From: a virus
Lineage: Duplodnaviria > Heunggongvirae > Uroviricota > Caudoviricetes
Reading direction: 5' to 3' (one strand)
Virus record (IMG/VR): IMGVR_UViG_2839610755_000024
DNA: 64,000 nucleotides
A program made the position numbers. Positions 57,001-60,000 of the stretch are shown here, piece by piece. Position 1 is the stretch's first letter; each line of letters opens with the position of its first letter.

Positions 57001-60000
57001 GCCTAGCGACAGCAGCATTACTGCATATAAAAGCCGCATGGAAAGTGCAATCAAAAAGTTTGTAGCTTTCCAGTCTGGTGAAGAAATCCCATACACTCCG
57101 ATTGACAAAGAATCCAGTGAGGAAAAAGATTTGACTGGCGAACCAACAAAAGTCGAAGGCAAGGCTAATGCACTTCATACCTATGATCTTCCAGTAGTTC
57201 TTCGACCTGAATCAGGGGTTACAGTAACGATTAAAGGCATTCCTAACGATATCACAAACGAAGAAGCCGAACGCATCTCTTCAATTCTGAAGGTTTACGT
57301 TCGGCCTCAATAATGCAAAAGCATTCAGCACAATGTCCAACTCCCCAGTCCGACATTGATGCTGTTTAACCAGAGCCTCCAAAAGGAGCCCTTGTTAAGG
57401 TACACAATATTTGCGATGTAACCTTAGCGCGTCTGGTACATTTTTTCAAGCGGTTGTAGGGCTGCCGCCAATATGAGAAAACACAGATGTCTACATACAA
57501 TTTGAATGACCAATTCGATCGAGAAGTTCATGTGAATGCCTATGAACGGATAAGGCATGGAAATCTTGAACATGTGTGTGAGCATTATCGCTCAAGGCCA
57601 CACCGCTAATCATCAACCCGGCCTCCATGCCGGGTTTTCTTTTCCTCTCGCCCAAAAAAACACATAACCAATTGTATTTATTGGAAAATAAATAGATACA
57701 ACTCACTAAACAACGCAATTCTGATCTCTCCTTACATCGCCGAGGCAATACACCCACGCTAAAAAACAATACTATTAAATACAAAGCGTTGTAAAAAAAC
57801 GCCCCGTTTTAGAACAAATTGTATTGACCAAGTGAAGTACATATCGTACTATTTAACCATCAGCAGGACGCTGGAAGCCAAATGGAACAGACTGGCAGGC
57901 TCTTTAAACAACGTCGACTCTCGACTACGTGGCTGAAAAGCCAGATCACCCAACCACATAAGCTGTGGGATGCAATGCCGAAGCAACCGTCTCAGGAGGA
58001 GCTTCGAGATTGCATCGCCAAAGTTTATTCGGGAGGAATCTATGTCCAGAAAAACAGAATTTAAAGGCACCGCAGCTTCTCGCCGTAGAGCTCGTCGCGC
58101 AAACCTGCAAAGTCAGGAGGCGATTAGCTCCGACAAACTACACAGGCCAACCCCATCACGAGTGGTCTTACAATGCAAACGCAAACCAGCAATGAGAGCA
58201 GAAGTAATAACACTGACAACGTTGACCAGAAAATATGAAGGCTCAACTTGTCTTCCAAATGTAGCTCTTTACGCGGCAGGCTACCGTAAATCCAAACAAC
58301 TGACAGCAAGATGACTTGTGTTGGTCGCCAGAAAATGAAATTAGGCAGCAAACCACTTATTTGAGGTGATATATGGAATTTCATGAAAGTGCGATTTGTG
58401 ATTTTCGCGCTAACGCAAATTCAGTAAAACCACAGCCAATTGCAGTTCTTTTTAAAACAATGGGTGCGTGGGCTGTTTGAACCGCCCCGGAAATCCTGGA
58501 GACTAAACTCCCTGAGAAAGAGGTAAACAGGATGACTAAAAATACTCGTTTTTCCCCCGAAGTCCGTCAGCGGGCGATTCGTATGGTTCTGGAAAGTCAG
58601 GATGAATATGACTCACAGTGGGCGGCAATTTGTTCCATTGCCCCAAAGATTGGCTGTACGCCGGAGACTCTGCGTGTCTGGGTTCGCCAGCATGAGCGGG
58701 ATACCGGGGGCGGTGATGGTGGGCTCACCAGCGCTGAACGTCAGCGTCTGAAAGAGCTGGAACGTGAAAATCGTGAACTGCGCCGCAGTAACGATATCCT
58801 TCGCCAGGCTTCCGCTTATTTTGCGAAGGCGGAGTTCGACCGCCTCTGGAAAAAATGATGCCACTGCTGGATAAGCTGCGTGAGCAGTACGGGGTCGGAC
58901 CGGTATGCAGCGAACTGCATATTGCCCCGTCAACGTATTACCATTGTCAGCAACAGCGACATCATCCGGATAAACGCAGTGCCCGTGCGCAGCACGACGA
59001 CTGGCTGAAGAGAGAGATACAGCGCGTATACGATGAAAATCATCAGGTGTACGGTGTGCGTAAAGTCTGGCGTCAGTTGTTACGGGAAGGAATCAGGGTG
59101 GCCAGATGTACAGTGGCACGTCTCATGGCGGTTATGGGACTTGCCGGTGTTCTCCGGGGTAAAAAGGTCCGTACGACCATCAGCCGGAAAGCCGTTGCCG
59201 CAGGCGACCGCGTAAACCGTCAGTTCGTGGCAGAACGACCTGACCAGCTGTGGGTGGCTGATTTTACTTACGTCAGCACATGGCAGGGCTTCGTCTATGT
59301 GGCGTTTATCATTGATGTGTTTGCCGGATACATCGTGGGGTGGCGGGTCTCATCGTCTATGGAAACGACATTCGTGCTGGATGCGCTGGAGCAGGCGTTG
59401 TGGGCCCGTCGTCCGTCTGGCACCATCCATCACAGCGATAAAGGCTCTCAGTATGTGTCACTGGCCTATACGGAGCGACTAAAAGAAGCCGGATTACTGG
59501 CATCAACAGGGAGTACAGGCGACTCGTATGACAACGCGATGGCTGAGAGCATCAATGGTCTTTACAAAGCGGAGGTAATACACCGTAAGAGCTGGAAAAA
59601 CCGTGCAGAAGTGGAACTGGCCACACTAACGTGGGTGGACTGGTATAACAATCGACGATTGCTGGGAAGGCTGGGCCATACTCCTCCGGCAGAAGCAGAA
59701 AAAGCTTATTATGCTTCCATCGGAAACGATGATCTGGCAGCCTGAGTTCACAGATAAAACACTCTCCAGGAAACCCGGGGCGGTTCAGTTTTATGCTTCG
59801 CCGCTGACGACACTGACGCAAGAATGGCAATAGGACAAGAGATGGAGATGGACCCGACAAACGATGAATTCATAATTTATGGCGCTCCATCTAATTACTT
59901 ACTTGATACCTGCAACATTTACAACAAGGCTGCCTGATGGTGGCCTTTATTTTTGGCATAAACAACAGAATAAACACAGCACTGTGTATTCATTCCAACG

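Follow-up and report, generated by a model that had tools for sequence, protein, structure and literature searches.

The 64,000-nucleotide (nt) stretch of DNA analysed here (the window), taken from the IMG/VR virus record IMGVR_UViG_2839610755_000024, is by its sequence an Escherichia coli O157:H7 Stx2c prophage integrated at sbcB, and within it a copy of the insertion sequence (IS) IS629 splits an 83-codon gene of the pL operon. We propose, at a probability of roughly 90%, that this insertion is a recent null allele of the gene (orf20 of phage VT2-Sakai, protein family PHROG 2471), that it followed an older IS629 insertion in the large terminase gene terL, and that the two directly oriented copies form a substrate for deletion. 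In the proposed sequence of events, IS629 would have entered terL first, and a second copy would then have entered the 83-codon gene of the same prophage lineage.

The element that splits the gene (copy 2) occupies positions 58478-59787 of the + strand (1310 base pairs (bp)), in the same direction of transcription as pL. It begins with TGAACCGCCCCGG at 58478 and finishes with CCGGGGCGGTTCA at 59787, and it is flanked by the target-site duplication (TSD) GTT, present at 58475-58477 and again at 59788-59790; the coordinates and TSD reported in a preliminary description of this DNA proved exact to the base. The imperfect terminal inverted repeats, TGAACCGCCCCGGAAATCCTGGAGA and TGAACCGCCCCGGGTTTCCTGGAGA, both begin TGAAC and agree at 22 of their 25 positions; for a 32-nt probe of the IS end, 0 chance matches are expected in the window. 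IS629 is a member of the IS3 family that transposes by a copy-out/paste-in route, makes its transposase from orfA and orfB through -1 frameshifting and generates a 3-bp duplication at the target. In copy 2, orfA (58532-58858, + strand, 108 amino acids (aa)) matches the HTH_Tnp_1 domain (E=2e-12), orfB (58855-59745, + strand, 296 aa) matches HTH_21 and the rve DDE integrase core (rve E=9e-28), and their overlap carries an ALIL pseudoknot, a stimulator of programmed -1 frameshifting (58813-58929, + strand, 121.5 bits against a gathering score of 50); the PGAP annotation of the element likewise mentions a 'programmed frameshift'. The element is 100% identical to IS copies in O157 strains 7409, 144 and 9000, and public records either label it 'insertion sequence IS629' (phage Stx2a_WGPS6) or assign it to the IS1203 family (PGAP). 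In every IS3-family and IS629 property tested, namely length, ends, open reading frames (ORFs), 3-bp TSD and identity, the element is IS629. It is no different from the IS629 polymorphisms known from O157:H7 prophages, which have the same 1310 bp, the same orfA/orfB arrangement with ALIL and the same 3-bp TSD; only the target site is particular here.

The insertion point lies between codons 35 and 36 of the disrupted gene, whose 5' part (codons 1-35) is at 58373-58477 and whose 3' part (codons 36-83 and the stop) is at 59791-59937, both on the + strand. As the preliminary description had it, removing the IS and one GTT joins these two parts in frame into an 83-aa product ending NIYNKAA, and the gene sits between N and ea10. 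The N antiterminator gene, of the N_peptide family, is directly upstream (58042-58314, + strand), and ea10 (DUF2528; 60120-60488, + strand; 98.6% DNA identity to lambda) is the next gene downstream. A Shine-Dalgarno sequence, GAGGTGA, precedes the ATG of the disrupted gene by 4 nt. Because the first three bases of the IS, TGA, are read in frame as a stop codon, the shortened product comprises exactly 35 aa and gains no residues. In strain 7409, PGAP annotates the two parts as 'incomplete; missing C-terminus' and 'incomplete; missing N-terminus'. The insertion is thus a predicted null allele of the 83-codon gene.

When the ORF was rejoined in silico and searched, homologues were found and the gene proved to be conserved in related phages. 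Uninterrupted genes with 100% identity to the rejoined 252 nt are present in at least 37 phage records, among them VT2-Sakai (orf20 in AP000363, H0090 in AP000422), phage 2851, the Morioka Stx1 and Stx2 phages and the PA-series Stx2a phages. In VT2-Sakai the same DNA (100%) fills the same slot between N and ea10, whereas here it is split by IS629 and the native start yields only the 35-aa N-terminal fragment. Among 5,426 complete E. coli genomes, the set searched for all distribution counts given here, the intact gene occurs in ~400 (~7%) and is always annotated as hypothetical protein WP_000394299.1. The protein matches PHROG 2471 over its full length (residues 1-83 against profile positions 1-83, E=1.4e-61), and its homologues in Citrobacter, Klebsiella and Enterobacter prophages are 82-84 aa long and 70-84% identical, with 43 invariant columns among 9 homologues. 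The ratio of non-synonymous to synonymous divergence (dN/dS) is 0.07-0.09 between the rejoined gene and the Citrobacter and Klebsiella genes, which are ~70% identical to it, at a synonymous divergence (dS) of ~2, and 0.13-0.15 between the Citrobacter and Klebsiella genes themselves. The 70 differences from these two homologues are distributed 15/12/43 over the three codon positions, with 43 at the third. At every locus examined the gene is the first after N, 8-60 nt downstream, and the N genes that precede it are of at least three unrelated types (N_peptide, N36 and, in mEp234, lambda N). To judge from these comparisons, the 83-codon ORF is a real gene under purifying selection.

The preliminary description had assigned the gene to the position at which lambda carries ral and sieB. 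The ral part of this assignment is borne out by the DNA joints with lambda. Upstream, only 31 nt resemble lambda, and these cover the ribosome-binding site and start codon of orf28; similarity returns 17 nt before the stop of the gene, in the last ral codons, and continues at 98.6% identity through ea10 and cIII. Since these mosaic boundaries coincide with the start of orf28 and the end of ral, the gene is most simply read as a clean cassette replacement of lambda orf28 and ral, with the C-terminal NKAA representing inherited ral DNA. The gene has in common with lambda ral the pL-operon slot between N and ea10 and the final four codons with the stop (NKAA*), but the proteins differ in length (83 aa, compared with 66 aa for Ral), and a BLASTP comparison with lambda Ral aligns nothing but the four NKAA residues at the end (E=1.2), a tail that stems from the shared flanking DNA. 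The sieB part did not hold. SieB of lambda and P22 is a protein of ~190 aa encoded between N and ral, whereas the gap between N and the ORF is 58 nt here; no such ORF is present on either strand between the N stop (58314) and the ORF start (58373), and no protein similarity to SieB was found. A terminator-like hairpin with a T-run, a consensus match only, lies over the stop codon of the gene at the joint with lambda-like DNA (59926-59947, + strand), and a second hairpin of this kind with a T-run is found between the gene and ea10 (60072-60093).

Searches with the 83-aa protein against Pfam, NCBIfam and PDB sequence profiles gave no usable match, the PADLOC defence and anti-defence models returned 0 families at E<=10, and literature searches on the protein accession and the ORF name yielded nothing relevant. 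An exhaustive hidden Markov model search of 1.84 billion representatives recovered close relatives only, plus two repeat proteins, P0021 (3126 aa, E=1e-33) and P0022 (1357 aa, E=2e-13). We rejected these two as spurious homologues, their profile scores being sums of 43 and 12 weak repeated matches, respectively, in long tandem-repeat proteins. No relatives of the protein were detectable beyond its small family. The AlphaFold2 model, built from a 9-sequence alignment, is weak (pLDDT 58) and depicts a helix, two strands, a helix, a strand and a helix; a Foldseek search of the PDB with this weak model found nothing under E=0.45. Our best guess, from the position of the gene, is that the protein has an accessory early function aimed at the host or its defences. 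More tentatively, we speculate that this acidic protein could be an uncharacterised counter-defence or host-takeover factor of a new family, which would have replaced orf28-ral as the first N-dependent early-left gene.

Ral alleviates type I restriction and enhances modification, and one possible, though doubtful, reading is that the 83-aa protein stands in functionally for Ral, with an anti-restriction or anti-defence role, in which case the IS would knock out an important counter-defence function. The exact replacement of the orf28-ral cassette speaks for such an analogy, as do the strong purifying selection and the other occupants of the same slot, which are Ral itself in a prophage of 14EC007 and a nucleotide-modification gene, Nmad5, in O103 ML775. 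The protein is also small and strongly acidic (isoelectric point (pI) 4.2, net charge -7), like many inhibitor and DNA-mimic proteins, and Ral itself came out of functional screens as an accessory gene for counter-defence (PMC12373910). However, lambda Ral is basic (pI 8.8) and shares no sequence similarity with the protein past NKAA, the homologues are less acidic (net charge -3), and no family or structure library produced a match. In addition, the nin region of the same phage holds a Lar-family restriction-alleviation gene and a phage N6-adenine methyltransferase gene (window ~50400-50650; strain 7409 locus L006 9750-9986 and 10386-10913), which counts against the need for a Ral analogue here. 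Finally, the prophage was apparently packaging-defective beforehand, leaving little for the phage to gain or lose.

This defect is attributed to IS629 copy 1 (34332-35641, + strand), which interrupts terL between TSDs of GGA (34329-34331 and 35642-35644); excising the copy in silico restores a single open terL frame. We infer that a prophage with this interruption was already unable to package its DNA before the ORF insertion, and that the added loss of the 83-codon gene was therefore probably neutral in selective terms, to the phage as well as to its host. Copies 1 and 2 are direct repeats whose sequences agree at all 1310 positions and whose starts are 24,146 bp apart. The independence of the two insertions, which the preliminary description had asserted, is supported by their different TSDs (GGA and GTT) and by their separate distributions, with the terL copy present in 42 genomes and the ORF copy in 3.

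The ORF insertion was counted with a 140-nt probe across its left junction, for which a single-piece match was required, and it is present in exactly 3 of the 5,426 genomes (O157:H7 strains 7409, F1273 and TX 376-2, each of US cattle or beef origin). The three share one insertion site, one orientation and the GTT duplication, and in these strains PGAP marks the gene halves as partial pseudogene fragments flanking an 'IS3-like element IS1203 family transposase'. Two other candidate carriers, 644-PT8 and 180-PT54, were rejected, as their IS629 is in ea10 and their ORF is intact. The terL insertion was found, mostly in cattle O157:H7, in 42 genomes by its left junction and in 41 by its right, while both IS copies occur together in only 2. 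These two, 7409 and TX 376-2, have an additional IS629 inside the interval between the copies, and F1273 is missing the terL copy. The additional copy in 7409 (locus L006 7716-9023, corresponding to window ~51368-51374) interrupts a DUF7301 gene; the window is without this copy. Because the terL copy is found in 42 genomes and the ORF copy in 3, we conclude by parsimony that the terL copy is the older and more widespread of the two and that the ORF copy arose later in that background. The 100% identity of the IS copies indicates that the ORF insertion itself is recent, and its occurrence in only 3 of the 5,426 genomes that it is restricted to a lineage.

Strain F1273 (NZ_CP038376, locus L023 ~7600) carries the ORF insertion with no IS in terL. 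Over 1888 aligned nt its terL matches the IS-free reconstruction of the window without a mismatch, and the only gap, of 1 nt, is located exactly at the GGA target, where GGGCGGGAGGC has become GGGCGGAGGC; PGAP annotates the gene as 'frameshifted'. The reconstructed wild-type terL sequence is itself 100% identical to many intact terL genes. The gap looks like the scar of an imprecise IS excision, probably joined at the GG microhomology.

Identical 1.3-kb direct repeats are a substrate for deletion through RecA. The preliminary description had stated that deletion between the two copies would remove the whole late region, which is not the case, as the head and tail genes lie outside the bracketed interval. 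This interval (35642-58477, 22.8 kb) comprises the 5' part of terL (35642-36271), terS (36268-36831), the lysis genes, stx2c B (43827-44096) and stx2c A (44108-45067), tRNAs, Q (45717-46205), the nin region, O/P, cII, cro, cI (55595-56290), pL and N. We built the predicted recombinant in silico (the 3' part of terL, GGA, IS629, GTT, the 3' part of the ORF), and its sole full-coverage match is cattle strain 144 (NZ_CP028603, locus L008 6701-8069), which has a different junction. In this strain the 3' part of terL, GGA and IS629 are joined straight to window position 58420, within an otherwise uninterrupted 83-codon gene and 58 bp from the ORF::IS629 site. The loss amounts to ~22.8 kb (window 35642-58419) and includes stx2c, Q, O/P, cI, N and all regulatory genes. 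Among the 42 terL::IS629 genomes, the right junction is missing from strain 144 alone, and PGAP calls in this strain an 87-aa fusion ORF (P0008) that runs from the IS into the gene remnant. Other strains of the same cattle collection, for example 113-141, have an undeleted prophage with an intact ORF. The deletion potential proposed earlier is therefore upheld to the extent that strain 144 has an IS629-anchored loss of nearly the same interval, though not by the recombinant that had been predicted.

The product in strain 144 could have formed by a one-step IS-adjacent deletion or in two steps, in which a new direct copy would have inserted at TTC (58420-58422) before recombination between the IS copies; the sequence fits both routes and cannot tell them apart. 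The intermediate of the two-step route is a window-like arrangement with the second copy 58 bp away. IS629 favours prophages and is known to inactivate genes, stx2 among them, and to give rise to deletions and to excision that depends on the IS-excision enhancer (IEE) (PMC9943667, PMC10758439). The former paper reports that IS629 drives gene inactivation and deletions in O157, that with IEE from a few nt to >40 kb are lost beside the IS, and that imprecise IS excision is among the activities of IEE (PMC9943667). Set beside the IS629/IEE-associated events in O157 (Kusumoto et al. 2011, as cited in PMC9943667), strain 144 keeps the IS and loses the adjoining 22.8 kb, whereas F1273 appears to have lost the IS and retained a 1-nt scar; both are seen in related genomes, and the window itself represents only the pre-deletion arrangement of two direct copies. 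Strain 144 further shows that a remnant in which IS629 reads into ea10-cIII-kil is viable.

Transcription from pL is antiterminated by N upstream of the gene, at nutL. Strong polarity of the insertion on ea10 through int is not expected, as N-modified polymerase should read through the IS. In another O157 strain, downstream transcription and phage production persisted despite an stx2::IS629 insertion (PMC7430833). Taken together, antitermination at nutL and this precedent make limited polarity probable.

The stretch from N to cIII has received repeated, independent IS629-family insertions, 95-100% identical to the window IS, in many prophages (window 59927-60661 and equivalents). These lie 8 nt before the stop of the 83-codon gene in AR-0427 (TSD AGG), just 5' of the ea10 ATG in 06-3462 and strains 107, 109 and 110 (TSD CAG), inside ea10 in 644-PT8 and phage WGPS6, inside cIII in 14EC007 (TSD TAT), and in non-homologous cassettes of the ral slot in the O111, O103 and strain 9000 prophages. 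This pattern suggests that N to cIII may be a preferred or well-tolerated target region for IS629. A shared orientation of the neighbouring IS with pL was discarded as a sign of bias, as the search joins same-strand pieces only.

Such a hot spot could also have been hit at the same place more than once, in which case ORF::IS629 would have several origins and F1273 would never have had the terL copy. The many independent insertions between N and cIII in other prophages are compatible with this, as are the terL of F1273, free of IS next to an ORF::IS629, and the strain 144 deletion end only 58 bp off. Yet site, orientation and GTT duplication are the same in all three genomes, and the sole indel in the F1273 terL falls at the GGA site, as imprecise excision would leave it, a coincidence with a chance of ~5 in 1888; we consider repeated origin unlikely. 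It is highly improbable that the 83-codon frame is a chance ORF or annotation artefact and the IS in intergenic DNA, as might be argued from its 'hypothetical protein' label everywhere, the lack of a domain family match and the low AlphaFold confidence, given a dN/dS of 0.07-0.15, a length kept at 82-84 aa over four genera, a good Shine-Dalgarno sequence before the ATG, a conserved position after different N alleles and a full-length PHROG match. Least credible of all, to the point of being negligible, is that the IS copies and the intervening 22.8 kb form a composite transposon, or that the second copy came from duplication or gene conversion: the copies are indeed 100% identical and in direct orientation, but each has its own perfect TSD, excising each restores a known intact gene (terL or orf20), the copies occur apart (terL only in 39 genomes, ORF only in F1273), and the unlike outer flanks, GGA on the left and GTT on the right, exclude a composite transposon.

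Several points weigh against the proposed reading of a recent null allele that followed terL::IS629 and left a deletion substrate. No complete RefSeq genome has the exact two-copy state of the window, and the order of events comes from parsimony rather than from a phylogeny. The exact recombinant between the two copies (GGA-IS-GTT) is absent from the 5,426 genomes, a search of low power given that only 2 of them carry both copies. The neutrality of the insertion and its lack of polarity are both inferred, and it should be noted that the 1-nt loss in the F1273 terL sits in a GGG run and is also typical of a long-read assembly error. In addition, none of Pfam, NCBIfam, PADLOC, PDB, AlphaFold and Foldseek revealed a function for the 83-aa protein.

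The prophage is bordered by sbcB on one side and by dacD/sbmC/yeeA on the other, and the + strand of the window corresponds to the direction of pL. Read in the direction of increasing coordinates, it carries tail and head genes, the 3' part of terL, IS629 copy 1, the 5' part of terL, terS, lysis genes, stx2c B and A (43827-45067), tRNAs, Q, the nin region, O/P, cII, cro, cI, pL, N, the split gene, ea10, cIII, kil, gam, bet and exo. Two further repeats were observed in the window. The portal gene contains a tandem repeat (28954-29558) with a 162-nt period and three overlapping 281-nt copies of 91-96% identity, and the portal gene of related genomes is annotated as frameshifted by PGAP. A 300-nt direct repeat of 80% identity (19595-19894 and 48226-48525, 28.6 kb apart) represents a pair of paralogous antirepressor (ant) genes located in the tail and nin regions, respectively; in another O157 strain, an inter-prophage deletion was mediated by antirepressor repeats (PMC7430833).

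The insertion described here is an ordinary IS629 polymorphism of a kind already known and annotated by PGAP, and this target site is found in genome annotations and not in the literature searched. IS629 polymorphism in O157 Stx prophages is a well-documented source of strain diversity and stx loss, and the ORF::IS629 junction, present in 3 of 5,426 genomes, provides a rare and clean lineage marker. The conserved, strongly constrained gene in the ral slot is a candidate for anti-defence screening. Within one prophage family we find an insertion, a second insertion, an apparent excision with a scar and an IS-anchored stx2c deletion, and this series of IS629 events illustrates how stx2c-negative O157 can arise without excision of the prophage.

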